A DNA stretch of 64,000 bases from Candidatus Aenigmatarchaeota archaeon (lineage in GTDB: Archaea > Aenigmatarchaeota > Aenigmatarchaeia > GW2011-AR5 > JACRAC01), in contig JACPJV010000006.1 of assembly GCA_016187395.1 (NCBI GenBank), positions 62,345-126,344 of the forward strand, in the 5' to 3' direction. Position numbers and translations under genes: made by a program. How positions within the stretch are numbered: the stretch's first letter is position 1; the number at the start of each line of letters is the position of its first letter. This document shows, one piece after another, positions 9,475-63,872 of the stretch. The notes under the pieces were generated by a model that worked only from the letters and a program-made list of their open reading frames with translations, did no database searches and had not been told where the DNA came from.

Positions 9475-9475
9475 T

Positions 9476-15677: not shown

Positions 15678-16082
15678 TCAGCATTCACAGGAGCCGTAGG
15701 TTTCTCTTGTTGCAGGATGCTCCCTGACTTTTCTGCAGAAGTCAAGCCAGTTATCTATCACTGGCCTGAATGATTGCAAGTAATCGCAGGCATTGCCGCG
15801 AACTACGCAGCCGCCGCCGCAGTTTTCCAGGCATACCAGGTACGCGCCTTCCTCAACGCCATAAAGATTCTCGCAGGCATTAAGCCATGAAGGATATTCC
15901 CTTGCAAGGTTTATACTTGCACGATCCGGATTGCTGCATATGGCTGCGCAGCCGCTCCGGAATTCCTTCTCAAGAGTGGCGCGGTCGAAGAAAGACAGGC
16001 CGCTGAGAAGGAAATAGGTCAAGACCGCTATCACCAGCGCTGCCATTACAATTATGACCACTCCTTTTATTGCCAATGCCAT
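15678..16082 (-). CDS. Cys-rich secreted protein with archaeal class-III (type IV pilin-like) signal-peptide candidate
   Basis: Internal start MALAIKG|VVIIVMAALVIAVLTYFLL: K-G followed by ~20 hydrophobic residues fits the prepilin-peptidase pattern. Mature part has 11 Cys. Immediately downstream of the giant gene. Confidence 0.4.
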   Translation of the reverse strand: MALAIKGVVIIVMAALVIAVLTYFLLSGLSFFDRATLEKEFRSGCAAICSNPDRASINLAREYPSWLNACENLYGVEEGAYLVCLENCGGGCVVRGNACDYLQSFRPVIDNWLDFCRKVREHPATRETYGSCEC

Positions 16083-16120
16083 CGAAACACACCTCCCGAT
16101 TCGCTGCATCCACTTGCACG

Positions 16121-19100: not shown

Positions 19101-22100
19101 TAATTGCCGCACCCTTTCACTGGTATGGTTATTTCTGCAACGCCCCGGACTCCTCCGCCAAGCTCTGCTACTACAAACACCTTATGATCGCCGTCAACTG
19201 CAGTGCGCGACGGCGTTATGAAGAGCTCCATCTGCAAAGATTCCTGCGGCCCGAACTCTGCATTTATCTCCTGCAGAAAGTCGTTGCCGAATACAAACTC
19301 AGCTTCCCATCCGTCAGGAACATCAAATTCGACGTTCACGGGGCTTTGTGCCGCGAACTCCGGCGGATTTTCATTCTTCACGGTTATATCAAAGGCGACA
19401 GGCACACGCGGCCTTGCAGGAAGCGAATACCCTTCTGCAAGCTGCCAGCTAACAGAAGGGCGCAGGCTCTGGCTTATCACGTAGGATGAGCAGGCTTGCC
19501 CGCTTATTCCTGTGGTTTTTGCTGTAACGCACCAGTTTATTGAATCGCTTATCTGCGCGCCTGGCGGGGACGCAACTTCTACTTTGAACGACTGGCTGTC
19601 TCCTGAGGCTCCCTTTCTCTGCAACGATACTTCACTGGTATCTGCAGATATGCTCCATCCTGCAGGAATTTCTGACAGGCTTATATCCAATGTCAATGCC
19701 GTGTCTGCCAGGTTGTCTATGCGCACGTCATATTCTGCAGCTTCGCCTGCAGGGGCAAGCATGCGGCCGGGCACGATGGTTATGAGAGGAGCTCCTGGCT
19801 GGTATGCGTAGACCAGAGCTTCATAGTCTGATATCTGCGACAGCGATGAGGAATAAATAGCTCCGGATTCCGACCAGTATATGCGATTTGAATAAACTGC
19901 AATTGAGCTGATATGAGGCCTTCCTATTGCGATTGGAACATCTCCATTACTGCCGCCAGAAAGCGGGTCTGCCGGAGTGCCGTCGCCCGCTATCTTCACG
20001 ATTTTTCCCTTGCCTGTGCCTCCGTTAACTGCTGCGTAAATATCATCGCCAGCCACAAACACGTCATTTATTCCAGCCTTGTTTTTGTATAGAATTTCCT
20101 CAGAGCCGCCGTCTTTGGGGATGCGCTTTACTGAATCGTCCTCGGTATAATATACGAAACGGCTGTCCAGCGCAAGGCCTTTTGCTGACGCACTTGCAAA
20201 CAGGCAATTTGCACCCGCACAGTTCTGTGCGTTGGCATTCAAAACAACGCGCTTTATCTTTCCTCCGTCCAGCCAATATGCATTCTGGTTATCAACTGCC
20301 ACGTGGGTTGCATTGCCGATTCCTCTTGCCATGTCAGAGGGCGTGAATGCATTTTTTGCAGTCTTGCTTATTGCCCCGGCTGCTGCGAAGTATATATTAC
20401 CTGAATCAAGAGCTATGCCGCCCGGCAAGCTGCCTATTGAATAGTCTATCCCTGTTGCTCCGCCAGTGCTTACAGAGCGGAGCCTTCCTTCAGTTGTTGT
20501 GTAATATATGAAATTGTTCTGATCTGTTGCGATGAACAGCGCGTCTGCGGCTATCTCGCTGCTTACAGGTTCAGGCAGCGATTCTGATATCATCGCATAG
20601 CCTGTGTACGTGCCTATGGAGCCGCCTGTCGGGAATACGTTCATGATAAGCTCTTGCTGACCCTTGCTCAGGTCTACGGCGCCAACAGGCTCGCCTGCAG
20701 GCGTTTCAAAGTCAGACGTCCACCCTGAGCCAGGGGCTTCGCCTTGCAGCGCAAATAAATATGGCGCGCAGCCTTGCGGCACAGAGCTGTTTACAACAAG
20801 CGGGTATCCCCATTCGCGGAGCGAGGACTGACTGGCCGATGAAATCTTTGCGCGTATGTCTACGTCCGCATTATTCAGTGACTGGTGGTTCGTCTGCTTC
20901 ACTGTGGAGAATCCCTTGTTGTTAGTTATCCTCACAGATATAGGCCCTGGAGACGAGGACTGCATTGGAACCGCGACGGTGCTGTCAGGATTGACGACCA
21001 CGCTGGCAGCAGGCTCTATGGAAGCGCCTTCTCCTGATATTGCAACGAATCCTGCGCCTGCCTGCGGAGAAAGAACTTCAAGCAGGTATTCAGTAGAGCT
21101 GCTCTGGATTGCAGGCTCTGTGATTGTCAATGCAAACTCAGCTGGCACGCCTTCCGGTGAGCATACCGCGCTTTGGCTAGTAATTGCAGGAGGAGGCCTG
21201 TCCTGCGCTGAAATAACCTCAAGCCCGGGAGAGCTTACTTCAGAGGCAGGCTTTGCCAGGACAAGGTAATTGCCTGGCATTGGCACGACAAACCTGTGCG
21301 TGAACACTCCCTCTGCTCCTGTGAAGTTTGCCTGAATCGTGGAATTCTCAACTACTGTGCCGTTCTGGTCAATGACAATAATGTCAACGTCAGCAGTCTC
21401 AGGCACGATCGCGCCTTCAATTGTGTGGTATTCTGAAGGCAGGGGAAGCACGTGATCTAATTTGCCGACAAGCACCTGCCTTGTGCGGTCGTGCACGCCC
21501 AGAGAGCCGACAGTGTCAAGCTGCTCGCATTTGCCTTCAAAACCTGCGCCAAGCCCGGGCTGCCTGACTGACGAGCGCCGATATATGCTTTCGCCGCGCG
21601 TCAGCAGTTCGCGCATCTGGAAGAAGAACTGGGTCTGGTAGGAGCGCGCAAGCATCTCGTAAGGCCTTGCCCGCGTATCGCGAGTGCCGTAAACAGGCTG
21701 AGGCGGCAGCGGAGAGCCGGCAGGATAGCGCGTGCCGAACTGCAGCTCTGCTTTGTTCTGTAGCAGAGGGTCGAATGTCGCGGGCGTGTCTACAGACGGG
21801 TCGTATGCTAAAGGTTCGTCGGAGAATGAAACTTCAGAAGGCGCTGCAGAAATTGCGTAGAATACCGCAGCAGCTGTTCCTATTGCTATAAGTTCTCCAC
21901 TGCTGTCGTACGCAAACAGAGCTGCTTCTGCAGTTTCAGGGACGAATCCTGGCGGAGAAGTTCCTGAACATGTATTGCTCGTTTCATCTCCAAACAGTTC
22001 TTGAAAACATGCCTCTACTACGGTTTCGTCCTGCACCATTATGGCCTGGTATGAATAACTATCTACGCCAGTCACAGGCAGCCATTCTGCACGTATGGAG

Positions 22101-25100
22101 ACCGTTTCTTCACTTGTTCTGATATCGCGAAAAGCGCTAAGCCTTGTTATTTCTATTTTGCCTAAAGTTTCTTCGCCTAATATTGTCTTCGGAATTCCAT
22201 ACGGCATTGGGTCTACGCTAAAACTTGCCGCAGGCTCGCTCTGTCCGTCCGGAATGATATCTACCATGATCATCGTTGGATTTGATGTCTCGCCTGTTTC
22301 GATTACAGCAGTATTCTCTTCATCAGACATGTATATCGTTTCCGAATACCACTGATACCCCCCGGGATCGTTATAGTATACAACTGCGCTTGCTCCGCCT
22401 GGCTGGCCCCAGTAGAGATTTCTTATGATTATCCTGTCGCTGCCTTCCTCTGTGAATTCAACGCTTCCTAAAACTGAATTATACTTCCTATGAGCTTTTC
22501 CTGTATCCATTCCCAGCCTTGTTGTGGCTAATCTCTCATTTCCGCGCAGCGCGGTTATTTCTATGAGAAGCCTCTCAGGATCGCCGAGCGGAAGCTCCTC
22601 CAGAATTAACTGACCCTGTATCCATCTTTCATTCACGATCTGCGTATAATCCCGATGAATCCCTTTCGGTGTGCTCGTGCTCCATGAAAGATAGTGAACC
22701 TCGTAGCTGTCTGCCTGAGGGTGCGCTCCCCATTTGAAATCCAAATCATACCATTTTCCTGTTAGATCTCTGATAGTAATTCCTTTTTCATAGGTAATCT
22801 TGGTGATTTCAACATTTGGCCACTGCAATCCAGGAGGTGCTGGTTTGGCTGGCGGTACAGGTGGTGACGCAAGGCATGACTTCCACGCATCCCAGTAAGA
22901 CATTATGCCAGGAACGTATTCGCGGGTTTCTGCAGGAGCATCAGCACCTGTCCAGTCACATCCTCCGGAATTGTATCCTGCCAGGGAATTCCGAACGCTG
23001 CCTTCGCAGGCTTCCTTGCCGCTGACAGCTCCGCTAATCAGGGCATCAAAATATCTTACGCCGCATTTTATGTTATCTGCCGGTTCTCCCGGAAAAACGC
23101 CAATATCCTTGCAATACGTATCCCATGTAAGAGATATGGCCGGGTCATTGACTATCTGCATCAGGCCGTGTGCGTTTTTCGGGCTAATTGCATACGGGTT
23201 CCAGCTGCTTTCCCAGCTTATGATGGCTGCTATCAATGCTTTCTGTTCTGTCTCGTTTGTCACAACTTCTTTTAGATTATTCGCATTTTTCAATGCCTCT
23301 TCAATTGCTGTCTCGTAATTATTATAATCACCCCTCTGTTTTGTGCATACCTGCGAAGCAGGAACCCTACTGACTGGCGTGCCGCTGACCTGCGTAAGCT
23401 CCAATTCTGCTGCCCTGCACGTGCGTGTATCCGCTCCTTTGCCTGTAAGGAACGTGTCCATTTCGCCTGCAATCTGCTTTACTTTCTGGTTGTCCAGCGC
23501 TTCAGCAGCTGCGTTGCACTGGTCTACTTTGCCTGACAATGCTCTCCAGTCAGCCCTGTCCTTAAGCCGGTTTATGCATGAATTGAACTGGGTGCATTTT
23601 ATCTTCAGCTCGCTTATTGCGACGCTTTTGAGGTCCCTGGTGCAGTAATACGGATCTGTCAAGGGCTTTGTTGTGCTTACATGGTTTAGGTCGTCGCAGG
23701 AGATGCGGCATTCTCCTTTCACTTCATTTTCTTCTACCTTAAGGCATAACCGCGTATTGTGATCTCTCTGAAAGTCAGGGCTCAGGCATACTTCACACGT
23801 AAGCGTTCCTTCCTGCTCCAGATCTGCAAAAACCTTGTTTTTCTCTATTCCAGTCTGCGTTTCTACCTTAATCCTTTCTCTAACAACAGCAGTGTCTGAT
23901 ATTATCTTTGCGATCTCGCAGCGCTCCCTGTCTCCTCCTGTCACGACTTTCTCTGCCTTGCCTTTGCCTTCTACTGTCTGTCCTTCTCTAGGTGATTGAT
24001 CCAAAGGCACGCATTCCCTGACAACCCTTCCGTCGCTTTTCCAGACCACGTGCGTGCCCCTTGCTTCGACGCATTTCAGGCAATCGCTGCCGAGCTTTGC
24101 AAATTCAGCAGCACTCCACTGCTTTGACAACTCAGACTGGCTTAATCCGCATGAGTTGGCAGAAGAATATTGCTCTGTCGTGATCTCGACCTCGCCGGCA
24201 CTGCATGAATCTGATGACAAGACGCATCTTCCCAGGCCTGTTTTTGGAATGTTTCCACCGCCTGGCAGAGGAACGTAGACGCCGCTGACTCCGGATATCT
24301 GGCCGTTCAATTCCTTGATCGGCGTTGCGCACCACTTGCCCGGAACGATCGGGAATGTAGATGAACACTGCTCTCTGGACGTGACTGATGATTTTCCTTG
24401 CGGGCATATCGGATCTGTCCTTACTGTCTGACCATTTTCAATATACTCACATTTTTTATTGAGAATTGATCCGTCATCGTCTCTGTCGCATATCGGAGTT
24501 GTTACTCTCCTGTCTGTATTATCCACACACGCTATTCCGAACTTATCGACGCTGCTTAGGCACGATGCCAAGGCTCTTGCATTATCCGGGCTTCTTGTCA
24601 GGCATTCGTCGCATGTCTGGGATTGCGACGCTATGGCGCGCTGCGCTGCAGTCCTTCTTTGCGCAGCTTCGTCCTGGATCTGCTCGACCATGCCTGCCAT
24701 TGTGTCCATGAATGACCAGAAGCCTGCGTTTGCCCAGTAAATGTCAAACTTAGACGGCTTCTGGCACGATTCTGCCGCAAGGCTGTAATCTGCAAGGTCG
24801 TAAAGCTGAGTGCTGTGAGCCATTGGCAGGGAGTCGAAGGTCCACCACGTGAATATAATGAACCTGATCTTGCAGAACTGGAAATTGATTCCAAAGAATT
24901 CCTTGATAGGAGTGTTGGCTGTGCAATATTGGGTAGGCACGAGGTCTTTCTGCTCTTGCTGGATCTCTCCTACCGCTACTTTTTTATCCAATTCAAGGTT
25001 ATGGTTTCGCTGCGCGTCTTCTATGGCCTGTATGTAGAGGAAACCGAAAACGCCCTGGAACAGCCTTTGCATGGCTCCGCCGCCACCGAATGCTTCTGTG

Positions 25101-27037
25101 AGCCATCCGTGCACAGAAGATGCGAGAATCGTGGCAAATAATTCATTCTGGTTTATAGATGCAGGGACGTACATATCAACAGTAGGTGGTGCCGGCACAA
25201 CTCCCAGCTTGTCCCTGGACCAGTTGTTCACGCTGTCCAGCGCTTTTGAAAAGCCTTCCAGCATCGTGCCTGATGCAGGCAGCAGCGCCCACGTAGGCTT
25301 GTTGCTGCAGTCATTTCCGATGCAGGGCTCGCACGTGCCGTCTATCTGGTATATGCATAAAGGCTTTGTGCCGCCGCTGCTTTTGAATGTGCGCCTGCTG
25401 ATCGCGCCCTTGACTTCAATTTCCTCGCCTGCGAATGTTGCTGTTGGGGTTACGTTGAAATCTGCTATGAGCATCGTATCAGGAAACGGGTCTATTTCCC
25501 TTAGAACAGGCGAGCCTGTGTAATTGAATTCCAGCCGCAGGACGCGCGCATTCACAGGCACAGACGAGAAATCAAAATATTGCACAAACTCCTTTTGCCC
25601 TGTGCCAAGCTTCTTGTTTACTTCGAATGTCTTGAGTCCTGCGGTAATCTTTGTCAGCGTGATATTATCATTCCTATCCCATGTTTCTAATGAAAGGCCG
25701 AAATGCGGATAATCCTGATCAAATTCTATTGTGCAAAATGCCTGCTTTGCTTTGGCAGACGTTGCGTTAGGCTGCTGATCTGCTTCCTGACCAGATGCCT
25801 CTCTTCCTGGCGGAGCTGTTCCTGGCTGGCCTGTGCCAGGGTTTGGTATAAGGGAGGGTGTTGCAAACTGCGGTAGTGGTGCAGATTCATCGGACGGTGC
25901 AAACTGGAAATAGGAATCCCTGTCCAGGTCAACCAAATGCCACGGGTTCTGGAATGAAATTCCCTGCTGCCTGGAGCGCGGCTCTGCAGGCGGCGCACAC
26001 TGTATGCTCCTGATGCTGATGGGTTTCGGCCCTTCTGTTGGCGGGGAGAATTGCGGCGGCTCGGGCAACAAAGGCTGCTCGCATCTCAGCGTGTCAGGCA
26101 TTGTATAGAATCTGGATAATGTATCATAGGACTGCAGGGATGGCTGGGGTATATATCCCGGCGTGCCCGGATAAAGAGGAGGGTAACTGCTTCCCAACGT
26201 CTGCTGCAAAACCCCGAATATGCGAAGCTGGCTCGGGTAGGGAACAATCCTGTACTCTATCGGAAGCGTGAAATCATTTTGTTCAATTACACTTTTTGGT
26301 ATGAATACGTTTGCTGAAAAAGGGCCTTCGCCGAACGCGGTTGTGCCGCTCACAGAGCCTGGCTGGCCAAATCCCGCGCTGCCAAGCCCGAAGCCGCTGA
26401 GACCTGACTGGGCCGCGCCCAGCTGTCCTGATCCCCTTACATTAACCTGCAATGCCTGCCCTCCGAACCACAGGCCGCGCACTGTTGCAATGTAATAATT
26501 CTGCCCTCCGACCGGCCTGCATTCTTTTTCCACAGGAAGGATGAAGAATAGTCCGAGATCGCGTATGTCATTCCATATGTCGTCTTCAAATTTGTAGCAA
26601 GCGCAAACCAGGGAGGATGTTCCGCACGCCACCTCTGGAAACGGCTCGGCATCTGTGACATACCCTCCGCTGCTGACCTGGTTCGCAGGCGTGCACGTCC
26701 CTCCTCCCTGCGGATAAACGTTTTTCTTGCAGAAGGAGTTGCACGCCAGGTCGCGGCTTATCTCGCAGTAACAGAAAGGCTTTTCCCTTGCGCACAGGGT
26801 AGCATCAGGGTGAAGCTGCTTTGCACCCACGTAATCCCTGGCATCGCTGCAGGAGCCGCCAACACCATAGAGCTGCTGGCAGCCTGTGCCGCACTTTTCG
26901 TCTCCAGGCGGCTGGGCGGCTGGCTGGGCGTATATTGGGGTGCCTAGAAGGAAAAATGCTAATATGACTAACAGCAGCGCTTTTGCAAAACGCATAGTAT
27001 TATTAGAAACCGGGTATAAAAATAGGTTTTCAGACAA
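16121..27037 (-). CDS. giant cell-surface protein (3,638 aa) with SLT lytic-transglycosylase domain, YWTD-like beta-propeller, CARDB/Ig-like repeats, discoidin (F5/8 type C) domain and C-terminal TM anchor
   Basis: Uninterrupted 10.9-kb ORF. N-terminal signal peptide (MRFAKALLLVILAFFLLGTPIYA). Cys-rich N-terminal modules. SLT signature ES-x-WNPYAIS-x5-GLMQ near aa 1275-1295 (nt ~22870-23290). Repeated YWTD/NHL-like blades ending RIYWSE (aa ~2165-2400). FGPTLAIDSDPSTFWESP discoidin domain (aa ~3460-3586). C-terminal hydrophobic helix then basic tail REKIRLWIEYKRS. Confidence 0.85.
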   Translation of the reverse strand: MSENLFLYPVSNNTMRFAKALLLVILAFFLLGTPIYAQPAAQPPGDEKCGTGCQQLYGVGGSCSDARDYVGAKQLHPDATLCAREKPFCYCEISRDLACNSFCKKNVYPQGGGTCTPANQVSSGGYVTDAEPFPEVACGTSSLVCACYKFEDDIWNDIRDLGLFFILPVEKECRPVGGQNYYIATVRGLWFGGQALQVNVRGSGQLGAAQSGLSGFGLGSAGFGQPGSVSGTTAFGEGPFSANVFIPKSVIEQNDFTLPIEYRIVPYPSQLRIFGVLQQTLGSSYPPLYPGTPGYIPQPSLQSYDTLSRFYTMPDTLRCEQPLLPEPPQFSPPTEGPKPISIRSIQCAPPAEPRSRQQGISFQNPWHLVDLDRDSYFQFAPSDESAPLPQFATPSLIPNPGTGQPGTAPPGREASGQEADQQPNATSAKAKQAFCTIEFDQDYPHFGLSLETWDRNDNITLTKITAGLKTFEVNKKLGTGQKEFVQYFDFSSVPVNARVLRLEFNYTGSPVLREIDPFPDTMLIADFNVTPTATFAGEEIEVKGAISRRTFKSSGGTKPLCIYQIDGTCEPCIGNDCSNKPTWALLPASGTMLEGFSKALDSVNNWSRDKLGVVPAPPTVDMYVPASINQNELFATILASSVHGWLTEAFGGGGAMQRLFQGVFGFLYIQAIEDAQRNHNLELDKKVAVGEIQQEQKDLVPTQYCTANTPIKEFFGINFQFCKIRFIIFTWWTFDSLPMAHSTQLYDLADYSLAAESCQKPSKFDIYWANAGFWSFMDTMAGMVEQIQDEAAQRRTAAQRAIASQSQTCDECLTRSPDNARALASCLSSVDKFGIACVDNTDRRVTTPICDRDDDGSILNKKCEYIENGQTVRTDPICPQGKSSVTSREQCSSTFPIVPGKWCATPIKELNGQISGVSGVYVPLPGGGNIPKTGLGRCVLSSDSCSAGEVEITTEQYSSANSCGLSQSELSKQWSAAEFAKLGSDCLKCVEARGTHVVWKSDGRVVRECVPLDQSPREGQTVEGKGKAEKVVTGGDRERCEIAKIISDTAVVRERIKVETQTGIEKNKVFADLEQEGTLTCEVCLSPDFQRDHNTRLCLKVEENEVKGECRISCDDLNHVSTTKPLTDPYYCTRDLKSVAISELKIKCTQFNSCINRLKDRADWRALSGKVDQCNAAAEALDNQKVKQIAGEMDTFLTGKGADTRTCRAAELELTQVSGTPVSRVPASQVCTKQRGDYNNYETAIEEALKNANNLKEVVTNETEQKALIAAIISWESSWNPYAISPKNAHGLMQIVNDPAISLTWDTYCKDIGVFPGEPADNIKCGVRYFDALISGAVSGKEACEGSVRNSLAGYNSGGCDWTGADAPAETREYVPGIMSYWDAWKSCLASPPVPPAKPAPPGLQWPNVEITKITYEKGITIRDLTGKWYDLDFKWGAHPQADSYEVHYLSWSTSTPKGIHRDYTQIVNERWIQGQLILEELPLGDPERLLIEITALRGNERLATTRLGMDTGKAHRKYNSVLGSVEFTEEGSDRIIIRNLYWGQPGGASAVVYYNDPGGYQWYSETIYMSDEENTAVIETGETSNPTMIMVDIIPDGQSEPAASFSVDPMPYGIPKTILGEETLGKIEITRLSAFRDIRTSEETVSIRAEWLPVTGVDSYSYQAIMVQDETVVEACFQELFGDETSNTCSGTSPPGFVPETAEAALFAYDSSGELIAIGTAAAVFYAISAAPSEVSFSDEPLAYDPSVDTPATFDPLLQNKAELQFGTRYPAGSPLPPQPVYGTRDTRARPYEMLARSYQTQFFFQMRELLTRGESIYRRSSVRQPGLGAGFEGKCEQLDTVGSLGVHDRTRQVLVGKLDHVLPLPSEYHTIEGAIVPETADVDIIVIDQNGTVVENSTIQANFTGAEGVFTHRFVVPMPGNYLVLAKPASEVSSPGLEVISAQDRPPPAITSQSAVCSPEGVPAEFALTITEPAIQSSSTEYLLEVLSPQAGAGFVAISGEGASIEPAASVVVNPDSTVAVPMQSSSPGPISVRITNNKGFSTVKQTNHQSLNNADVDIRAKISSASQSSLREWGYPLVVNSSVPQGCAPYLFALQGEAPGSGWTSDFETPAGEPVGAVDLSKGQQELIMNVFPTGGSIGTYTGYAMISESLPEPVSSEIAADALFIATDQNNFIYYTTTEGRLRSVSTGGATGIDYSIGSLPGGIALDSGNIYFAAAGAISKTAKNAFTPSDMARGIGNATHVAVDNQNAYWLDGGKIKRVVLNANAQNCAGANCLFASASAKGLALDSRFVYYTEDDSVKRIPKDGGSEEILYKNKAGINDVFVAGDDIYAAVNGGTGKGKIVKIAGDGTPADPLSGGSNGDVPIAIGRPHISSIAVYSNRIYWSESGAIYSSSLSQISDYEALVYAYQPGAPLITIVPGRMLAPAGEAAEYDVRIDNLADTALTLDISLSEIPAGWSISADTSEVSLQRKGASGDSQSFKVEVASPPGAQISDSINWCVTAKTTGISGQACSSYVISQSLRPSVSWQLAEGYSLPARPRVPVAFDITVKNENPPEFAAQSPVNVEFDVPDGWEAEFVFGNDFLQEINAEFGPQESLQMELFITPSRTAVDGDHKVFVVAELGGGVRGVAEITIPVKGCGNYVCEPERGETSQSCAADCSFNAGIFKCPVFGSGAGFDYYTCMQPKDNTTEMSVDIALEQTLFGQEVRACRRGATPEQCLASQCGITRTGISGTLKDCAAELDPTGRGVFGDNYNNEVACPTDVEDDIYFYIRGEDVTGTNIQSYRSVNYSFACPFYNLERLASAASRWSSIVQNCPSVVARRISEGERVCADILKEACAWREDHLQLLDAALLNPSKSSIESLLEDTESLEERIQARIATSCIGIPGLEILGIVPPGTFVGETAKISMSVANSFGEDYRGFASCEVARSDGTMVEPKSSCTLFRSGETPVEIPIFLDSAGTWTINSCTVHGDLASAISEQECEQAPEFSSKNVGMSFTVTAPETSIVSPREGAVLSGTASVEAVIRGTFDEIDFSVSANSRQCAGAPLFSMQAEGSGDKKTYTAAWNTASFADKSYWLCVIAKAGTTSTFLGSVFVAVNNYDFLLQPSSEQKTVSAPVDHEITITNTGFSDSYSISCTSNASATLQAGSSTKQCGAGQIQASIQTGNSLVAKISLPKRTSLTTLTVINNQSEQKQSILIITEGQGNLAPAIANARAEPSSVQQGGSVKFYAELRDAESDNITRAEACLDSICSEKLCTMSRDGAGYSCTAAVGKNPGSYTWYVSARDSAGSSSTSAVQQLVVTPPGGGCAYTCLPSCTDNVQLCLDREQREGTCTAGTVCCRENTMPACTPSQEGCGITIEKSTCVFDPVKQKYVASVQAVRTGGNYTVISVSGVQSQRLYAESMSYQADFSDSDPKSISIGVYGSTYSEPLICSETGTIICGGAQDFYEPAGLSLSIANAFAKSSAAGFGPTLAIDSDPSTFWESPLPAWIKVDLSQEMSVNGIGIYSQIDRPRSFSIEVSKDDSTYLEVADVDNAQYERDWNVTYFGPATARWVRINIDEAERADRSIVKIFELRVYGTRIGLAGDQGAGGAAQGEFPWALAAVIAIVIIVVIVILINREKIRLWIEYKRS

Positions 27038-28438: not shown

Positions 28439-28834
28439 TCACAACATCTCTTTTATTTCCTCCCTGCTCAGGAGGTTGCGGTGCTTCTGGTCGTCCCAGA
28501 ACTTGCGGACCGCAAAATAGAAGTATTCGTAGAGTGCAGGAATGTCCTTTGCGAGAATTACCACGCCCCTGTCCATGATTTCCGCGCGGATGTAGAGCGG
28601 CAGGTTTTCAAAAATACGCACATCGTACTTTCCGCCAAGCCTCTGCCACACCCTGCTCAGGAGCGCATTCCTGTCTTTGCACTCCGGCGCAACTATCGTG
28701 ACATCTATGTCGCTTCTGGGAGTCGCCTCTCCTGTTGCGTGCGAGCCGAAAAGCATCACTGCCATGATTTCCCTATCCTTTTCCAGAAACGCGAAATCCT
28801 TCTTCAGGATACTCACAATCTTTTTTTCAGCCAT
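28439..28834 (-). CDS. minimal nucleotidyltransferase (MNT, MntA-like antitoxin)
   Basis: GSHATGEATPRSDIDV (GS...D.D) nucleotidyltransferase motif. Overlaps the HEPN gene by 22 nt. Confidence 0.7.
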   Translation of the reverse strand: MAEKKIVSILKKDFAFLEKDREIMAVMLFGSHATGEATPRSDIDVTIVAPECKDRNALLSRVWQRLGGKYDVRIFENLPLYIRAEIMDRGVVILAKDIPALYEYFYFAVRKFWDDQKHRNLLSREEIKEML

Positions 28835-29244
28835 GACTTCACCTCTTTTTCGAACGATTTGAACTCCGGTGAGATTTTTTTGATGGAGCTGAAAGCAGTT
28901 TCCTCGTCAACTGTATTGTACCTGTGAATGAGCACATTCCTCAGGCCATTGGAATCCCTCAGTATGGCCGCTGTTTTTCCTCCTGCAATATTCTTCTCCT
29001 TAAGAAATGTTATGTTGCTGTAGTCGTCCTTTGGAAACGCGCCTTCATCTTTTACAATCATGGCGCAGATGTCTATAGCAGCTTCTGAAAGCTCCTGGAA
29101 TGCCTTGAATATTGCCAGCCGCGTCTTCTCGTTAGCCTCGTCCTTTAGCCATTCTGAAATCTCTGAATACCTCTTTTCCATAAGCTCCAGTTTCTCTTTG
29201 TACCTCGTTGCCCTTGCAGCATCCATGCTATCAATAGTAGCCAT
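28813..29244 (-). CDS. HEPN-domain protein (HepT-like toxin; DUF86)
   Basis: R-x4-H-R-Y motif (RNVLIHRY) near C-terminus. Paired with the MNT gene. Confidence 0.65.
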   Translation of the reverse strand: MATIDSMDAARATRYKEKLELMEKRYSEISEWLKDEANEKTRLAIFKAFQELSEAAIDICAMIVKDEGAFPKDDYSNITFLKEKNIAGGKTAAILRDSNGLRNVLIHRYNTVDEETAFSSIKKISPEFKSFEKEVKSWLKKRL

Positions 29245-29363
29245 GCTTTTTAATATACTAAGGTGGCACTCTATAACAATTCTTTTCAGGCTCTAATTAC
29301 AGGAGGAACTTCGTTCCTCCTTGTATGGGAAAGCACAAATATCATGTTCCGTTTTATTTGTGG

Positions 29364-29410
29364 TTTCACTATATAGTGCTGCAAGGAATAATCATTTTCT
29401 TGTTTCACTC
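29364..29410. repeat. short palindromic repeat, copy C of the 'cactatatagtgctgcaaggaata...ttcttgtttcac' family
   Basis: tttcactatatagtgctgcaaggaataatcattttcttgtttcac immediately 3' of the TadC-like gene. Preceded at 29299-29321 by hairpin caggaggaacttcgttcctcc. Confidence 0.55.
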
Positions 29411-31428
29411 TAGACGTTGAACTGGGTGAGGGGACCGAAGATCAGCAGCGATATCACGGATATGGCTGCGTAGACTATGGGCGATACAAAGAACATGCCT
29501 GAGAGGATTTCAGAACGCCTTATCGGATCTTCGCCTACCTCTACTCCTGAGAGAAGATATCCGTACAAGAACAAGGACTGCGCCACGAAAATAGATACTA
29601 CGACAATAAACTGGAACGGCGTAATGACCAGCTCGCCGAATGCAAAAGAGCCTCCTACAGGCAGCGATGCAAAGCCTGATATCGCGCTTTGCTGGAGCTG
29701 CAGCTGGCCAAGTATTCTTATTATGACGATGGCCATGGTTGCTATAACGCCTGATATAAGAGGCGTGAGGACATATGCCTGAAACTTTATAGAGTTTGTA
29801 ACGCCATGCATTGACCTTTGCACGTATTCCTGCGTATTATGAAGGTCTTTCAAATAGCGCGATATGGACAGCATTGCCGTTCCTGCGTTTGCAGGGCCTT
29901 TTTTGGCTGCCTCTGTTATAGCCTTCATCACAGATTCGATAAGCGTGGATGGGTAGAATCTTATCGCGCCCTGCTCTTTGTCGAAGAATGCCTGCTCAAA
30001 CGTCATCGAGAATTTCTGCATGTTCTGTGCTGCGCGAAGGAACAATTCCCTTATCTTGAGCCCCTCCATCCTTTGTATAGACTCTATCATGGCTTTTTCT
30101 ATAGGCACTCCCGACCTGATTCGCGTGCCCAGCTGGAACAAAGCCTCCTTGAACTCATCTTCTATGGATCTTATGTCTTCCCGCAGCTTCGAACGGCCGC
30201 GGCTTATCAGGAGAAAATAGGTTCCCGGCGCAAGCGTTATTGCCAGCGTGAACAAGAGCGCTGAAAGAACAGAGAAACTGAGGACTGATGTCCCGCCAGC
30301 TTCGACAAAGCCGGCGGTTTCGCTTTCCTGGCATACAATTTTTCCAGCCTGCTCTGTGCACGCAAGGCCTGCACTATAAAGAAATAACGCAAGTGCTGCA
30401 AGAATTATCCCGACCAGAAAAGCCACGGCTGCTGCAGATACAAGCCTTTTGCCCATGTAGAATTTTCCGGGAGGCGGCAGCCTGGGGTGCCTGCTGACAT
30501 CTATCTTGCTGAATGTCACGGGCCTTTTTTCCAGGATGCTTGCCATGAGGAAGAAAAGCATTATCGGCAGGAGTATGTCGTACATCACAAGAAGGGGGAC
30601 AGGCCCTACGGAAAGGAATATTGATATCACAGGAAAAAGAACGAGCCCCATCACAGGCAATATGAGGCCCATTGCGTTCACAGCCATCAGCGGCATGCGC
30701 AGGTTTGATATGTAATTCTGGGATGTCTCCTTGTTTCCGCTAAGGACTATCCTGACAGCCTCGTCCAGCAATGAGTGGAATCTTGCCCCGCTCTGCCTGG
30801 TTGAATTTATGATAAGGCCCACGGCCTCCCCGAACTCCCTGTTCCCTTTCCATTTTTCAGAGTAATCCAGCAGCGCATCCTCAACGCTGAGATAATTTCC
30901 AACACGCACATCCCACAGGAGTTTTGCAAGCTCTACCTGCATTCCGGCTGTTGTGTTTCTCGCTGCAAATTCTACAGCACCTTCCAGGCTTGGCGTGTTT
31001 CGCATGTAGATTACCATGTACAGGATTGCGGAAATCATGTCTGCTCCCACTGTCATTTCGTACCTCTTCTTGAGCCTCCTGGGCGCTGTATAGAAATAAT
31101 AAGCAGCTGCAATGCCTGCCAGCGATATGGACGTTACAAAAAGGATGTCCAGCGCCATTCCAGCAAAGGCTGCAATTATGTAGATTATCACGGGCACAAA
31201 GGAAAGGATTGCAGTAAGTGCTGTGAGAGACGCAACGTCCCTGGGCTTTATGTTAAGATGGGCGAATTCTATCGCTCCCTCCAACCGCTTGTTTTTTGTA
31301 TCTATTTTGAGAAAACTTCCCGCCCTTCTTGCAAGCCTTTCATAAAACGTGTCTTCCCTTATCTTAACAGGGCTGCGAAACTCCCTGTAAGACTCTGAAA
31401 TTATATCCTGCTCCGGCACCGGAATCAA
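29410..31428 (-). CDS. type IV pilus/archaellum-family membrane platform protein (TadC/FlaJ/GspF-like)
   Basis: 672-aa polytopic protein with two GspF-like cytoplasmic helical domains, each followed by TM segments. Directly downstream of the secretion ATPase. Confidence 0.65.
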   Translation of the reverse strand: MIPVPEQDIISESYREFRSPVKIREDTFYERLARRAGSFLKIDTKNKRLEGAIEFAHLNIKPRDVASLTALTAILSFVPVIIYIIAAFAGMALDILFVTSISLAGIAAAYYFYTAPRRLKKRYEMTVGADMISAILYMVIYMRNTPSLEGAVEFAARNTTAGMQVELAKLLWDVRVGNYLSVEDALLDYSEKWKGNREFGEAVGLIINSTRQSGARFHSLLDEAVRIVLSGNKETSQNYISNLRMPLMAVNAMGLILPVMGLVLFPVISIFLSVGPVPLLVMYDILLPIMLFFLMASILEKRPVTFSKIDVSRHPRLPPPGKFYMGKRLVSAAAVAFLVGIILAALALFLYSAGLACTEQAGKIVCQESETAGFVEAGGTSVLSFSVLSALLFTLAITLAPGTYFLLISRGRSKLREDIRSIEDEFKEALFQLGTRIRSGVPIEKAMIESIQRMEGLKIRELFLRAAQNMQKFSMTFEQAFFDKEQGAIRFYPSTLIESVMKAITEAAKKGPANAGTAMLSISRYLKDLHNTQEYVQRSMHGVTNSIKFQAYVLTPLISGVIATMAIVIIRILGQLQLQQSAISGFASLPVGGSFAFGELVITPFQFIVVVSIFVAQSLFLYGYLLSGVEVGEDPIRRSEILSGMFFVSPIVYAAISVISLLIFGPLTQFNV

Positions 31429-43974: not shown

Positions 43975-44170
43975 CTATAGAAATCCTTGCCGAAATTATT
44001 AGGAAGCCACCTTCGAAATCTTAGCGTGGCTTGGAAGGCGAATGGACGTTAGTGAATGGACGGTGGATGAATGGACATTCCTGCAGGAATGTCAGTTTGT
44101 GTTCGCTGCAGAAAGTGTCGTTTGCCTCCGCTGCAGGAACGTCAGTTTGTAGCTCGAAGCTGCCGGGCTA
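43975..44170. repeat. intergenic direct repeats (gaatggac x3; ctgcaggaaYgtcagtttgt x2)
   Basis: cgaatggacgttagtgaatggacggtggatgaatggac and two copies of ctgcaggaa[t/c]gtcagtttgt within 120 nt. Confidence 0.6.
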
Positions 44171-44822: not shown

Positions 44823-44987
44823 TTTAATTACCTGCTTCTTGTAACTCGCGGCACGTTAAGTACTTTTTGTTAATCCAGCAACTATTTTGCAGATTTTCGT
44901 TTGTAGGTTACTGAGTAGGTTATAGTGATGCAAGGAGAACAAACCTAGATAGTAAAATTATATACCGCCCCAAACCTTCTATTTACC

Positions 44988-49888: not shown

Positions 49889-50035
49889 GTGGGCCTGACG
49901 GGATTTGAACCCGCAACATCTTGCTTAAGAGGCAAGCGCTCTATTCCCTCCGTTCCCTTCCATCCCTTTCTTTGGGGTTCTCCAAGACCTTTCTTTCGGG
50001 AAAGAAAGGGATTGGACCAGGTTGAGCTACAGGCC
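49889..50035 (-). tRNA. tRNA-Lys(CUU) with a ~73-nt intron in the D-loop (non-canonical position ~20/21)
   Basis: Minus-strand read GGGCCUG-UA-GCUC-AACCUGGU[intron]A-GAGC-G-CUUGC-CUCUUAA-GCAAG-AUGUU-GCGGG-UUCAAAU-CCCGU-CAGGCCC-A. All four stems pair (one G-U in T-stem), U33 present, anticodon CUU. Intron contains hairpin CCUUUCUUUCCCGAAAGAAAGG. No CCA encoded. Confidence 0.8.
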
Positions 50036-51492: not shown

Positions 51493-51510
51493 AATTGAAA
51501 AAGCAAGTTA

Positions 51511-51609
51511 TATAGTCATGCAAGGAATAAATCAGGATATAATACTTCCTTGCTGACTATATGTGAACCAAATAGTATCATATCCTGATTATTTATTTGG
51601 TTCACTATA
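51511..51609. repeat. MITE-like palindromic repeat element, copy E (~100 nt)
   Basis: tatagtcatgcaaggaata...ttccttgctgactatatgtgaaccaaatagtatcatatcctgattatttatttggttcactata. Homologous to 9548-9626. Lies immediately 3' of gene 51626..52444. Confidence 0.65.
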
Positions 51610-51625
51610 AGTACATATGACGATG

Positions 51626-55016: not shown

Positions 55017-55246
55017 ATCTTCTTTGCGTGGACAGTTTTCACCTTCTTATGACCAGGAGTCAAGAACTTTCTTTTACTTCTGTTAACAGGCTTCCATTTC
55101 CATGCGTGTTTATACATGCGCGCGCTTTTGCCAAAGCCGCACGCGCTGCACTTCTTGTGCTGGATATGGTAAGAATGCCTTCCGCACCTCCGGCAGCGTA
55201 TATGGCTTATTTTATTATGCCTTCCGAAGCTTGGGGTGCCTTTCAT
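55013..55246 (-). CDS. rpl37e: 50S ribosomal protein L37e (C4 zinc ribbon) with C-terminal extension
   Basis: [38 protein letters not shown] matches L37e (GT.SFGKR.NKTH..CRRCG...YH.QK..C..CG). Confidence 0.75.
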
Positions 55247-55590
55247 GAAAATCACCTTCAGACTCTAAGATTTCATATTCAAAGGTTTTTATAGGCGGAA
55301 GCCTCCACATAAAACCTCCGCTTTTAATGCAAACCAACTTAATAAACGGCATATGATATGTTGGTTTGCAGTATGCTGAACAACTAAACCATATGGCGAT
55401 TATTTAGTTGTTCAAGCATAAGCGGAGGATACAAGGAGGAACAACGTTCCTCCTGTACAGCAGGAGCTATGCTCCTGCTTGTATGCTACAGAAGGCTTCC
55501 GACATGCTTTGCAAGCATGAATCGAAGATTCATGCTGCACCGCAAGAGCTTCGCTCTTGCTTGTGCTCAAAGAAACCCACGCCTTTAGGC

Positions 55591-56463
55591 ATGGGAGTAT
55601 ACGGAGCAAATCATATGGATATGCAAAAGGAAGGCGCAACAGAAGCGCATCGCGAAAGAAGCGCGAAAACAGCAGCTGCTTCAAAGGCTTATAACATTTA
55701 TAAACTTTTCGGTGATAACAATTTAGTGACAGTTATGACAACAGCTACTTTGCCTGAACTGACCGGGAATCTTGTCGTGCCAGCTGCCGCAGGCAGCTAT
55801 CCTGCATTGGGCGCAGCCTACAGGCACGAAGGTTCTTCCATCGATTACTCACCATGGCTTGTAAGAACAGGCAAAAACTATTATGGCTCCAAAGCAGAAA
55901 TCCCGGAAGGCATAAGGATGTCCACGGCAGCTGAAGAGCTTGCTCTGCAGCTTGCCCTGGAGAAAGCAGGCAACGACCCAAGAAATGCAGAAGTTTTCAA
56001 CGACCTTTTCGCCAGAAATGAAGAGAAATATTACGCATGGCAATGGACAGAAACAGGGCTCCGCGTGCCAAAGGGCCGCAAGCCTGATGCTTATGAAACT
56101 GATGCGCAGGGCAGAAAATACTGGCAGCGAATATTGCTTATTGGCGACCAGGAAATAGGCGACTTCCCTGTTCCAGAAGGCAATGGAATGGTAATTGTCG
56201 AATGGGACGAGGTTTCCGGACTGCCCAGAGTAACAGAGCAAATAGCTTATCCTCACGAGCCATACACAACACATTTCTGGTTTAATCCTAATCCTGATAA
56301 AGACAAATTATCAGGTCACTACGACGTTGCCATCGGGCGCAGGGGCGCCTGGCCTCACGGTGTGGACGCCAGGTGCCTGAGCGTCGATGCGTCCTACGGG
56401 CGCTGGGATGCGGATTCCGACGGCGGGCTTCCGCCCTGTTCGGGGGTCGCTTCCGCAGATTGA
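55591..56463 (+). CDS. DGR target protein (variable C-terminus; CLec-like VR ending ...GRW.A.SDGG)
   Basis: The last ~40 codons contain the variable repeat (56326-56435). Start uncertain (ATG at 55591 or 55615/55621). The longer frame from 55408 is rejected because it spans an intergenic hairpin array. Confidence 0.6.
   Translation: MGVYGANHMDMQKEGATEAHRERSAKTAAASKAYNIYKLFGDNNLVTVMTTATLPELTGNLVVPAAAGSYPALGAAYRHEGSSIDYSPWLVRTGKNYYGSKAEIPEGIRMSTAAEELALQLALEKAGNDPRNAEVFNDLFARNEEKYYAWQWTETGLRVPKGRKPDAYETDAQGRKYWQRILLIGDQEIGDFPVPEGNGMVIVEWDEVSGLPRVTEQIAYPHEPYTTHFWFNPNPDKDKLSGHYDVAIGRRGAWPHGVDARCLSVDASYGRWDADSDGGLPPCSGVASAD
56326..56435 (+). repeat. DGR variable repeat (VR) followed by GC hairpin (IMH-like)
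   Basis: Aligns to the TR with 12/12 cleanly alignable substitutions at TR adenines. Immediately followed by GGCGG-gctt-CCGCC hairpin absent from the TR. Confidence 0.75.
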
Positions 56464-56846
56464 GAAAGAGCTTGCAAGAATAAATCCAAAGGAAGTTGAG
56501 GAAGCGCTCCTGCAAAGAATGAGAAAGGATTTCAGAGAAACGCCTTTTCCGGAATTTCTGGCGAAGTATAAATTATAAATACTGAAGTTTGTTCTAATTT
56601 ATTGTCTTGGCCAACGCCGGTTGCATATCAAAAGATTGGCGCCAAAAAAGCCTGTCCCAAAGCACCAGTCGCATGTGCATCGGCGACCCCGAACTACATG
56701 CCTGTTCGTAGATGAAGCTGTGTTTTGGCATAGCTTATGACATGAAATACAGCAGCGATAGCTGGTAAAGGCAGAAGTTGATTTTGCCTCGAACGCTAAA
56801 GCTGCAGTGGGGCAGGCATTTGCTGCCTTTGGCGGGCAGGCTACAA

Positions 56847-57042
56847 GTTGCCATCGGGCGCAGGAGCAACTGGCATCACGGTGAGGATAGCAATTGGGTT
56901 TCAATTGCCAGCATATACGCCAGGTGCCTGAACGTCAATCTGCTGAAGGTTCTCGATTTTCAGCAGAGCGCAGATGCGAACTACGGGCGCTGGAATGCGA
57001 AATCGTTTCAAAACGACGCAAATTCCAACGACGGCTTCCGCC
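56847..57042 (+). repeat. DGR template repeat (TR), adenine-rich (many AAC/AAT codons in frame)
   Basis: gttgccatcgggcgcaggAgcAActggcAtcacggtgAgga...cgccaggtgcctgaAcgtcAat...gcgAActacgggcgctggAatgcgAaAtc... Contains three in-frame blocks (30, 36, ~18 nt) absent from the VR. Confidence 0.75.
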
Positions 57043-57069
57043 AATAGTTCTGGCTGGCCAAGACTCATA

Positions 57070-58131
57070 ATGAAATCTTACAGCAATCTGTATGGTCAGC
57101 TATGCTCTATGGAGAATCTGAAGCTGGCGTACAAAAAGGCGCGGAAAAGCAAAGTCTCCAGGTGGTATGTTAAGGAATTTGAAACGGATTTAAGCCGGAA
57201 TCTGTTGCAGTTGCAAAAAGAATTGCAGGAGATGAGCTATGAGCCAAGACCGCTAACACAATTTGTAATCAAAGACCCGAAAACGCGGATAATCTCCGCC
57301 TCCAATTTCCGCGACAGAGTTGTTCATCACGCTTTATGCAACATTATAGAACCAATTTTCGATAAAATATTCATATACGATTCTTATGCCAACAGAAAAG
57401 GCAAAGGCACGCACGCAGCGTTGAAGAGATTTGATTGTTTCAGGCGAAAGGTTTCTCAGAATGGCAGATTATTGCCAAACGCCAGAGACAACAACCAAGT
57501 TTTTGGTTATGCATTGAAGGCAGACGTAAAGCACTATTTCGATTCAGTGGACCACGAGGTAATGATGCAGATAATAAGAAGGAAAATCAAGGATGAGAGC
57601 GTCCTCTGGCTGATAAGGAAAATTCTGGATAATCACAATTGCAAAACACCGGGCAAAGGCATGCCCATAGGCAATTTGACAAGCCAGTTCTTTGCAAACG
57701 TGTATCTGAATGAACTGGATTATTTTGTAAAGCATCATCTCAATGCCAAATACTATGTTCGTTACGTTGACGATTTTGTCATACTGGATGCCCCAAAGCA
57801 GCGCCTTGAATTCTATAATGCACAAATAAAGGAATTCCTAAAATCAATAAAGCTTGAACTTCACCCGGAAAAATCCAAGGTTATGCCGCTGCATGCCGGA
57901 GTCAAGCTCCTTGGATTCAGGGTTTTCTACAGATACAAACTGCCAAAGAAAAGCAATCTGAGAAGAATAACGAACAGAATAAACGGTTTTATTGATTTGT
58001 ACAGAGAGGGCATTATGGACAAGGCAGAAATTCTTGAACGAGTGGAGGGATGGAATGCCTATGCGATTCATGCAAATACCTATAAGCTAAGAAAGCAGAT
58101 GATGAAAAATTTACGAAAATCTTTGCGATAG
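57070..58131 (+). CDS. DGR-type reverse transcriptase
   Basis: RT motifs: RVVHHALCNIIEPIF, YALKADVKHYFDSVDH (motif A), YVRYVDDFVIL (YxDD), and the DGR-specific IGNLTSQ motif (MPIGNLTSQFFANVYLN). Confidence 0.85.
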   Translation: MKSYSNLYGQLCSMENLKLAYKKARKSKVSRWYVKEFETDLSRNLLQLQKELQEMSYEPRPLTQFVIKDPKTRIISASNFRDRVVHHALCNIIEPIFDKIFIYDSYANRKGKGTHAALKRFDCFRRKVSQNGRLLPNARDNNQVFGYALKADVKHYFDSVDHEVMMQIIRRKIKDESVLWLIRKILDNHNCKTPGKGMPIGNLTSQFFANVYLNELDYFVKHHLNAKYYVRYVDDFVILDAPKQRLEFYNAQIKEFLKSIKLELHPEKSKVMPLHAGVKLLGFRVFYRYKLPKKSNLRRITNRINGFIDLYREGIMDKAEILERVEGWNAYAIHANTYKLRKQMMKNLRKSLR

Positions 58132-63687: not shown

Positions 63688-63872
63688 CGTTCACACACCT
63701 CACGGTTGCTTGCAGCGGAGGCGAAATGCACGTTGCCGCAGCAACGTGCCATTCACTCGCCGTGCATACGCTTTCATACCTGAGTTATACCAAGTAATAC
63801 TCATGTATCCTTAAATGCTTTTCGGCTAGAATGCAAACTGACGCTCCTGCAGGAGCGTCCATTCTCGCATAC

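Follow-up and report, generated by a model that had tools for sequence, protein, structure and literature searches.

What kind of element lies at about 55290-55615 of a 64-kb stretch of DNA (the window, here always the whole stretch that was analysed), just upstream of the target gene of a diversity-generating retroelement (DGR), and why do its hairpins recur elsewhere in the same window? A preliminary description had seen in this region a mosaic of short hairpin motifs shared among intergenic regions. It included a supposed leader element in two copies, the stems of which differ by paired changes, and a selected RNA structure was proposed. All four classes of motif are present, within 1-3 bases of the positions first given for them, and exceed what chance predicts. 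We conclude with considerable confidence that the region is a palindrome-associated transposable element (PATE), a non-autonomous member of the IS200/IS605 family whose ends are like those of IS608 and which carries nested hairpin modules, in Candidatus Aenigmarchaeota (DPANN). The kind of element is ordinary, the lineage little studied.

Copies, boundaries and genomic contexts

The family is defined by nine copies: the window has three, two metagenome contigs found by a scan for the right-end tail have five more (two in L046 and three in L048), and L052, a relative with an 82% identical L7Ae protein, has one. Copy 2, the long form (322 nt, plus strand, 55293-55614), is the region in question; it is preceded by TTAT at 55289-55292 and ends with TCAT at 55611-55614, and its ends also occur in L046, L048 and L052. 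Copy 1 is a compact form of 122 nt (plus strand, 6905-7026; nhmmer E = 2.4e-33) with CTAT on its 5' side at 6901-6904. Copy 3 is degenerate and lies on the minus strand (14945-15084; nhmmer match 15080-14956, E = 0.0035). Its left end, CGGAAGCCTCCCCATAAAA, starts at 15081 in the minus-strand reading next to a TTAT at 15088-15085, and its degenerate right end reads ...GGGAGTATAGGTGATCATCAT.

Copies 1 and 2 share their left end, where 6908-6938 matches 55296-55326 (repeat D20), and their right ends, 6976-7026 and 55564-55614, are 82% identical over 51 nt (repeat D4). This second match is the pair of supposed leaders, the homology of which was borne out; a third related hairpin is found at 6927-6946. 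The pattern AARCCCNCGNCTTTAGNNNNGGGANNANA matches exactly three sites in the window, both right hairpins and 6927-6946, versus none in 100 shuffles.

The boundaries of the repeated element are sharp, and there is no target-site duplication. The tetranucleotide 5' of the left end is TTAT in seven of the nine copies, the others having CTAT (copy 1) and TGAT (L048 copy c). The terminal TCAT is found in all nine copies and homology stops there, the nine right flanks (CTCC, ATGG, TTCG, TATC, GTTC, AGTG, CAGC, TTTT and AGAA) being all different. There is no inverted repetition between the termini CGGAAGCC... and ...GCAAATCAT. The element is found on either strand and in unrelated surroundings, with as many as three copies in 7.5 kb. 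Their sizes, 122-337 nt, are too short for a transposase, and the only open reading frames (ORFs) in them are spurious ones across the hairpins.

Copy 1 lies antisense to the L24e gene and overlaps its stop codon, inside a string of ribosomal-protein genes: the stop TGA is the complement of 7023-7025, within the terminal TCAT of the element. When 6905-7026 is removed in silico, ...AG is joined to ATAG to give AGA TAG and the same end of the L24e protein, as expected of an insertion 3' of CTAT. After precise loss of the element the joined flanks (a slash marks the junction) would read ...GCTAT/CTCCTCGTCC... for copy 1 and ...GGTTTTTAT/ATGGATATGC... for copy 2. Copy 2 ends 120 nt before the conserved start codon of the DGR target gene (ATG 55735), beyond a TATA-like box, TTTATAAA, that is about 30 nt upstream of this ATG. 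Copy 3 lies downstream of a short uncalled ORF on the plus strand (about 14750-14905, in our own reading), at a distance of about 40 nt, and the 3' end of the minus-strand ORF 15171-15449 is about 90 nt away. In the relatives L053 and L054, the L24e-S13 spacer is 229 nt long, lacks the element and is not alignable. The Logan contig L001 breaks inside the right hairpin of copy 1, as expected for a multi-copy repeat.

Anatomy and folding of the element

The copies share a common order: the 5' tetranucleotide, three variable bases, CGGAAGCCT, a joiner with AAAA or AAAG at its end, the left hairpin, AT(G/A)A..., AGGCTTCCG, two bases, ATGCTTTGCTC, ...GAAA, the right hairpin, AGTATACG and GAGCAAATCAT. 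In eight copies the left (IPL) and right (IPR) subterminal hairpins are in direct orientation on the same strand. The tetranucleotide before the right hairpin (the right guide) is GAAA in the eight intact copies, and that before the left hairpin (the left guide) is AAAA or AAAG. Two further helices enclose these hairpins. Helix P1 pairs the left terminus CGGAAGCCT with AGGCTTCCG around the left hairpin, and helix P3 pairs ATGCTTTGCTC with the right terminus GAGCAAATCAT around the right hairpin.

In copy 1 (plus strand), P1 pairs 6908-6916 with 6959-6967, the left guide AAAG is at 6923-6926 and the left hairpin at 6927-6946; P3 pairs 6970-6980 with 7016-7026 around the right guide GAAA (6984-6987) and the right hairpin (6988-7007). 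Copy 2 has the same parts on the plus strand at greater distances. The 5' strand of P1, CGGAAGCCT at 55296-55304, pairs with AGGCTTCCG at 55493-55501, and these 9 bp are invariant in eight of eight copies. The left guide AAAA (55311-55314) and IPL together span 55311-55428, the perfectly paired arms being CCTCCGC (55315-55321) and GCGGAGG (55422-55428). The loop between them holds a 100-nt insert of two more hairpins (55322-55421; inverted repeats I3 and I4). Additional hairpins at 55510-55539, which contains GAATCGAAGATTC, and 55537-55566 lie inside the 5' strand of P3; a related AGCATGAAT...ATTCATGCT hairpin is at the equivalent place in L048 copy b. The right end, 55564-55614, is the supposed leader. 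It consists of TGCTC, a remnant of the P3 5' strand, the guide GAAA (55572-55575), IPR (55576-55595), AGTATACG and the P3 3' strand GAGCAAATCAT (55604-55614).

The motif GAAGGCTTCCGA, described from 6957 and 55491, contains the 3' strand of P1. It was found at both positions, with one-mismatch copies at 15070 and, on the minus strand, at 6907. On both strands there are five matches versus 0.34 expected; the fifth, at 8939 inside the eIF2-alpha gene, is taken as chance.

The hairpins are conserved as structures across eight copies. The left hairpin has eight different stems in eight copies, all perfectly paired, and the right hairpin has six variants among the eight, the two in the window being the only imperfect ones in the family. 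Compensatory variants are also found in P3 (ACGTG with CACGT, GCTTC with GAAGC), and P1 never varies. For counting, a core alignment of the eight copies (A1, MAFFT) was used from which long inserts had been cut out by hand and replaced by TTTA, so that the innermost left-hairpin pair of rows c2 and L048b is a placeholder. P1, which is invariant anyway, was left out of the covariation count because MAFFT misaligned it in two rows. Changes on both sides were found in 13 of 27 stem pairs, and 95.8% of the cells are paired. Sliding the pairing partner by 1-3 columns lowers this to 36-48%, and none of 500 shuffles reaches the observed values. The stem-preserving changes first noted between the two copies of the window thus became strong covariation once the extra copies were added; the two copies by themselves have one true double change, one gained pair and one broken pair, which was thin evidence for an inference on structure that proved right.

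Copy 1 folded as single-stranded DNA reaches -34.2 kcal/mol (z = -7.5) and the four helices are reproduced. Copy 2 reaches -87.8 kcal/mol (z = -14.5) with a nested version of the same fold, in which the left stem closes around the 100-nt insert. Covariation alone does not separate an RNA hairpin from a hairpin in single-stranded DNA; the context favours DNA. The claim of a selected structure stands as regards structure, and the reading of that structure as an RNA leader does not.

Relation to IS608 and a proposed mechanism

In IS608 of Helicobacter pylori, the transposase TnpA binds two subterminal hairpins in single-stranded DNA and recognises the shape of the hairpin rather than its sequence. 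The foot of each hairpin has on its 5' side a 4-nt guide that base-pairs with the site of cleavage, AAAG with TTAC at the left end and GAAT with TCAA at the right. The left end reads TTAC/CAAACTAACGCCTTAAAG-CCCCTAGC-TTTTA-GCTATGGGG-ATACAAGGCGAAACGCCTT, with CTTAAAG preceding CCCCTAGC, and the right end GAAT-CCCCTAGC-TTTA-GCTATGGGG-AGTATGTCAA/ (PMC5934647 supplement), the slash here marking the end of the element. The corresponding strings of the window are CTAT/CTTCGGAAGCCTCCTCTTAAAG-CCCACGGC-TTTA-GCCGTGGG-ATAAG for the left end of copy 1, with CTTAAAG again preceding CCCACGGC, and GAAA-CCCACGCC-TTTA-GGCATGGG-AGTATACGGAGCAAATCAT/ for the right end of copy 2, in which GGCATGGG is followed by AGTATACG...TCAT/.

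In both systems the subterminal palindromes are imperfect and lie on one strand, their 5' arms are C-rich and their loops TTTA, and a 4-nt guide precedes the hairpin foot (AAAG/GAAT in IS608, AAAA or AAAG/GAAA here). Both have a tetranucleotide on the 5' side of the left end (TTAC in IS608, TTAT here) and another that terminates the right end (TCAA and TCAT). The flanking strings CTTAAAG-CCC, GGG-ATAC-AAGG... and GGG-AGTAT are common to both, as are a second left-end hairpin and the lack of inverted terminal repeats and target duplication. In contrast to IS608, which is about 1.8 kb long, the family of the window has no tnpA or tnpB inside its 122-337 nt, its left boundary is about 22 nt (or 19 nt) from the foot of the left hairpin, P1 (9 bp) and P3 (11 bp) sequester both termini, and the host belongs to the DPANN. 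Under a position-wise scheme that fits both IS608 pairs, TTAT would pair with AAAA and TCAT with GAAA.

Hairpins of this type are associated with transposase genes. A hairpin-pattern scan over one genome per prokaryotic species found the pattern in 44 loci of very diverse Bacteria and Archaea, many of them at contig ends, versus about two expected by chance (our own estimate, assuming equal base frequencies). In these loci a covarying lower stem encloses the hairpin and TTAC is often found 17-19 nt upstream. In L020 the hairpin is just 5' of a Y1_Tnp (IS200-like) gene (Pfam E = 7.7e-39), which is followed by a TnpB gene (Cas12f1-like TNB domain, 1.9e-23). In eight further loci (L033, L025, L018, L004, L027, L013, L026 and L015), one of them in a Micrarchaeota genome, tblastn located a tnpA or tnpB gene at most about 0.8 kb from the hairpin and on its strand. 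The archaeal IS200-like elements that were fetched as homologues of a Micrarchaeota TnpA have the same layout, with TTAT/AAAA at the left end, and different termini.

Among these, L057-L061 (P0264 loci) and L055/L056 carry tnpA only, occur in at least two genomic contexts and have sharp ends. Their left end reads TTAT/TGATGCTAGTCTGTGAAAA-hairpin-ATGAAACAGAC and their right end AAAA-CCTACCCC-TTTA-GGGGTAGG-TTATTTATA/.

If the element behaves as IS608 does, both of its hairpins would be bound in single-stranded DNA by a TnpA, a Y1 HUH transposase, that is encoded elsewhere. This enzyme would locate the cleavage sites, TTAT outside the left end and the TCAT that forms the last four bases, through pairing with the guides; the top strand would then be excised as a circle and re-inserted 3' of a TTAT. 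A TnpA that reads the shape of the hairpin would let the stems drift in sequence as long as they stay paired, which would give rise to the compensatory changes that had first drawn attention to the locus, and the covariation observed fits such a recognition of single-stranded DNA hairpins by their structure. What the analysis shows is the anatomy of the element, its copies and boundaries, the covariation, the resemblance in sequence to the ends of IS608 and the occurrence of the same hairpin next to tnpA and tnpB in other genomes; that the element would be moved in trans, cut at exactly these positions and still be active is inference.

Several observations weigh against assignment to an IS608-like PATE. 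Neither tnpA nor tnpB was found by tblastn with three transposase queries in the 64-kb window, L046, L048 or L052, and no autonomous element with the termini CGGAAGCC... and ...GCAAATCAT is among the archaeal IS200-like elements fetched (L004, L055, L057-L061). A near-identical strain with an exact empty site was not recovered, and look-ups of the exact L24e protein gave no record. Copy 1, which combines CTAT with AAAG, and L048 copy c with its TGAT break the guide rule and may be dead copies. The right end is 19 nt from the hairpin foot, as against 10 nt in IS608, and the large inserts in the hairpin loops of several copies may prevent binding of TnpA. The invariant 9-bp P1 and the 11-bp P3 exceed anything documented for IS608 and may have an extra role at the RNA level.

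Precedents among palindrome-associated elements

PATEs have been described for haloarchaea, including Haloquadratum walsbyi (PMC3119063), and PATE-like elements for Geobacillus stearothermophilus (PMC10055086). Like the family of the window, they are too short for a transposase, have no inverted terminal repeats and cause no target duplication. They have near-terminal palindromes of the IS605 type and form heterogeneous families with core deletions that are often invaded by small repeats. In haloarchaea these small mobile repeats insert into the near-terminal palindromes, by a mechanism unknown there (PMC3119063). The present family differs in its Aenigmarchaeota lineage and its sequences, in its nested modules, which are 28-nt hairpins and 52-66-nt hairpin pairs versus SMR-A repeats of roughly 110 bp, and in its left stems, which are different in every copy yet perfectly paired.

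TACA hairpins and the sources of the mosaic

The hairpins first noted as gtacag...cttgta are real and amount to six units on both strands. Each unit is 28 nt long and consists of TACA, an 8-bp stem, a 3-nt loop, the other arm of the stem, a bulged T and TGTA. The units are at 9519-9546, 29298-29325 and 55456-55483 on the plus strand and at 9493-9520, 55430-55457 and 14970-14997 on the minus strand, six being observed versus 0.02 in 100 dinucleotide shuffles.

Copy 2 contains a double TACA hairpin at 55430-55483 (55430-55457 in minus and 55456-55483 in plus orientation), and L052 has the same pair at the same position. In both, ATAC comes straight after the left hairpin on its 3' side and is itself followed by the first TACA hairpin. 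The left-end sequence of IS608, ...GGGGATACAAGGCGAAACGCCTT (PMC5934647 supplement), includes a second left-end hairpin at this position, to which the first TACA hairpin of copy 2 and L052 corresponds. Another double TACA hairpin lies outside any PATE at 9493-9546, 17 nt past the stop of ORF 9362-9475. It is a clean insertion of 52 nt into a 114-nt repeat, the other copy of which lacks it: the alignment of 9465-9630 with 51500-51613 has a single 52-nt gap and is otherwise about 90% identical. A single unit at 29298-29325 (plus strand) lies in the spacer between the minus-strand ORFs 28813-29244 and 29410-31428. The arms of the TACA doublets are not complementary to each other. A search of viral contigs for the double TACA hairpin gave no matches.

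The motif GAATCGAAGATTC had been reported to be flanked by different arms that are nevertheless complementary. Exact copies with such arms are found at 14978 and 55519, and the motif is the top of two TACA-type hairpin units, one in copy 2 and one in copy 3 (the unit at 14970-14997). The 13-mer alone is not above chance at two mismatches.

The mosaic has two sources. One is that deletion or insertion variants of a single family, long and short, coexist: the long forms measure 322 nt (copy 2), 337 nt (L048 copy b) and 224 nt (L052), and the compact forms 122-123 nt. The other is that small hairpin modules lie in the hairpin loops of the PATE and between its helices, the extra hairpins of the long forms being at three places, the left loop, the right loop and inside the 5' strand of P3. 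A likeness seen by eye between the 100-nt insert of copy 2 and the hairpins at 9581-9626 and 51564-51609 was unsupported by BLAST and was dropped.

Decaying ends leave unexplained that P1 sequesters the left terminus, that the variable left stems are always paired and that hairpin modules recur in the loops. A two-tier system might be imagined, in which the TACA hairpins and 52-nt doublets are separate tiny mobile hairpins that target the single-stranded loops of IS200/IS605 ends, like SMR-A in haloarchaea. The right-end module and its flank might in addition be expressed as a guide-like or structural RNA used by the host, as stop codon of L24e and intercistronic structure in the ribosomal-protein operon or beside the promoter of the DGR target. 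We regard this combination as unlikely.

Alternative explanations

Could the PATE have been put to use after its insertion? On top of a transposon origin, the right-end module and its flank might be transcribed as an omega-like guide RNA for a TnpB-type nuclease encoded elsewhere, or the host might use the element as a promoter, a terminator or a structure between cistrons. PATEs are said to 'often encode omega RNAs', which work in trans with TnpB (PMC10055086), and TnpB genes follow the same hairpin in L020, L013 and L026. The invariance of P1, the conservation of P3 with compensatory changes and the place of copy 1 in the ribosomal-protein gene string, where it supplies the L24e stop codon, also speak for a function. 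The compact form is only 122 nt long, however, and its right-end module about 60 nt, which is short for the scaffold of a TnpB guide RNA. TnpB was not found in the window or the related contigs by tblastn, the closest archaeal autonomous elements found carry tnpA only, and there was no Rfam match to transposon-associated RNA families. Co-option in this sense seems quite improbable.

The idea of a structured cis-regulatory leader or non-coding RNA that controls the DGR target gene and gene 7198 drew on the strong structure-preserving covariation and the very low folding energies. In addition, the right end of copy 2 has a GGAG 8 nt before ATG 55615, the annotated start of the DGR target (NCBI HYW25_01115, P0121; 282 aa). 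The overlap of the leader with this start disappeared when the protein was compared with its relatives. Six homologues begin at the residue aligned with M41 of the annotated ORF, so the conserved start is ATG 55735, not 55606 or 55615; the annotated ORF is probably 40 codons too long, the extra codons (55615-55734) not being conserved among the homologues. At the other locus, 6978-7026 had been taken for a leader 170 nt upstream of gene 7198, but the interval is filled by the coding sequence of L24e on the opposite strand (7023-7190, minus; compare the L24e of the relative L053). The presence of copies in both orientations and unrelated contexts, as many as three within 7.5 kb, the homology to transposon ends and the absence of the element at the orthologous L24e-S13 site of L053 and L054 likewise argue against a leader. 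The two leader copies are the right ends of one repeated two-ended element and thus not the leader of a neighbouring gene.

A comparison with Rfam 15 gave no RNA-family match at or near the gathering score in either region, and in the whole window only RT-16 and a tRNA pass. With permissive settings, the best matches in 55200-55700 have E = 0.6-8, and those in 6680-7200 are Acido-Lenti-1 (21 bits versus a gathering score of 37) and SNORA52, with E = 0.017-0.08. A cis-regulatory leader is very unlikely.

A third proposal, aimed mainly at the TACA hairpins and their inverted doublets, is that of repetitive extragenic palindromes (REP, BIME or REPIN) moved by a domesticated RAYT transposase. Such repeats are short, imperfect palindromes outside genes that have a conserved foot and in some cases form inverted doublets, and their hairpins are recognised by a Y1 HUH enzyme related to TnpA. 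The TACA units resemble them: they are imperfect palindromes of 28 nt, their foot is conserved, they have a bulged T, and they occur in intergenic DNA singly or as head-to-head doublets, the doublet acting as one 52-nt insertion/deletion unit; one distant TnpA homologue (P0307) was labelled RayT by its source. The element of the window is, in contrast, two-ended, with distinct left and right ends in direct orientation and a fixed TTAT as 5' target tetranucleotide, which is the layout of IS200/IS605. The doublet arms do not pair into a long REPIN-like hairpin, there is no GTAG head, no RAYT or Y1 gene was seen in the window, and the first TACA hairpin of copy 2 and L052 aligns with the second left-end hairpin of IS608. 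We consider this origin extremely improbable.

Two classes of guide RNA were tried and rejected. An archaeal H/ACA guide sRNA, suggested by the stem-loop-stem layout and the weak SNORA52 match, was dismissed as there is no K-turn or K-loop and no tandem G.A in the upper stems, and the ANA box expected directly 3' of each lower stem is not kept: what follows P1 varies between ACA, AGA and TGA among the copies, and nothing follows P3, since homology ends at TCAT; a C/D sRNA suggested by ATGATGA at 14946 was dismissed as the string is the right end of copy 3 on the other strand and no consistent boxes were found.

Host, neighbouring genes and other repeats

The window carries archaeal genes for ribosomal protein S13, eIF2-alpha, Nre, S28e and L7Ae, and for its L7Ae there is a 100% identical protein in a metagenome-assembled genome of a Candidatus Aenigmarchaeota archaeon. 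The window is thus part of a DPANN archaeal chromosome and not of a phage. A phage database search of the DGR neighbourhood gave a weak match to reverse transcriptase only and no phage relative, and a PHROGs search was uninformative. The DGR adjoins the region under study. Its reverse transcriptase is encoded at 56974-58131, an RT-16 RNA that is part of it was matched above the Rfam threshold at 56679-56849, and variable/template repeat pairs were detected by repeat search (D7, D12).

Other genes near the copies deserve mention. ORF 7198-7509 (plus strand, 103 aa) lies between S28e and L24e, on the strand opposite to them, and has no Pfam or PHROG match. S28e and L24e are adjacent in the relative L053, and the ORF is called as a gene in a Logan contig; it looks like an insertion into the ribosomal-protein string. 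In the S13-S4 spacer (5830-5945, minus strand), the S4 start, ATGGGTCATCC, is found a second time, some 100 nt upstream of the real start; the two have contexts of their own, and the arrangement looks like a partial duplication of the gene start. Directly after eIF2-alpha, a small zinc-ribbon ORF (MILRYCSKCKDYCISFVCPRCGLSTRSAHPTKFRMKV; 9362-9475, plus strand), below the ORF-size cut-off used, is probably Nop10. A single ORF of 3638 aa on the minus strand (16121-27037) encodes a giant protein of the kind typical of DPANN genomes.

Further repeats were found in the window. The 114-nt repeat has the terminal inverted repeats TATAGTGAWGC...GCWTCACTATA and is present at 51510-51609 and 9475-9626, with partial copies at 354-376, 29371-29393 and 44920-44942. 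It consists of a long hairpin (TATAGTSATGCAAGGAATA / TATTTCCTTGCTSACTATA) and a second one (GTGAACCAA...TTGGTTCAC), and is probably another miniature transposable element or possibly a promoter module rich in TATA boxes.

A family of hairpins with variable, paired 8-10-bp stems and the 5' flank (G/A)NTGAATG is found at 15434-15454 and 44074-44093 on the plus strand and at 7739-7763, 5991-6009, 16077-16112, 63728-63749 and 63840-63859 on the minus strand. The copies at ribosomal-protein genes are followed by ..GAGGTGTGTTTC(N)ATG (Shine-Dalgarno sequence and start), for example directly upstream of S28e, with the 3' arm abutting the Shine-Dalgarno sequence. The family could be a shared translational leader or another repeat. 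Finally, a 50-nt stretch (49967-50016) is 82% identical to 3617-3667 of L046 and includes the hairpin CCTTTCTTTCGGGAAAGAAAGG, which is just upstream of the tRNA gene at 49890-49957 (minus strand); a similar hairpin is found at 8371-8390.

Implications

The local annotation is corrected in two places: L24e is encoded at 7023-7190 on the minus strand, and the DGR target likely starts at 55735. A false lead is removed at the same time: what lies beside the DGR target is a transposon end, and no model of a riboswitch-like or DGR-related RNA should be built on it. Assemblies of these genomes also break at such repeats. With its left stem different yet perfectly paired in each copy, the family is a natural example of hairpin recognition based on structure and not on sequence, and it puts an IS608-like PATE family on record for the Aenigmarchaeota, DPANN archaea whose mobile elements have been little described.

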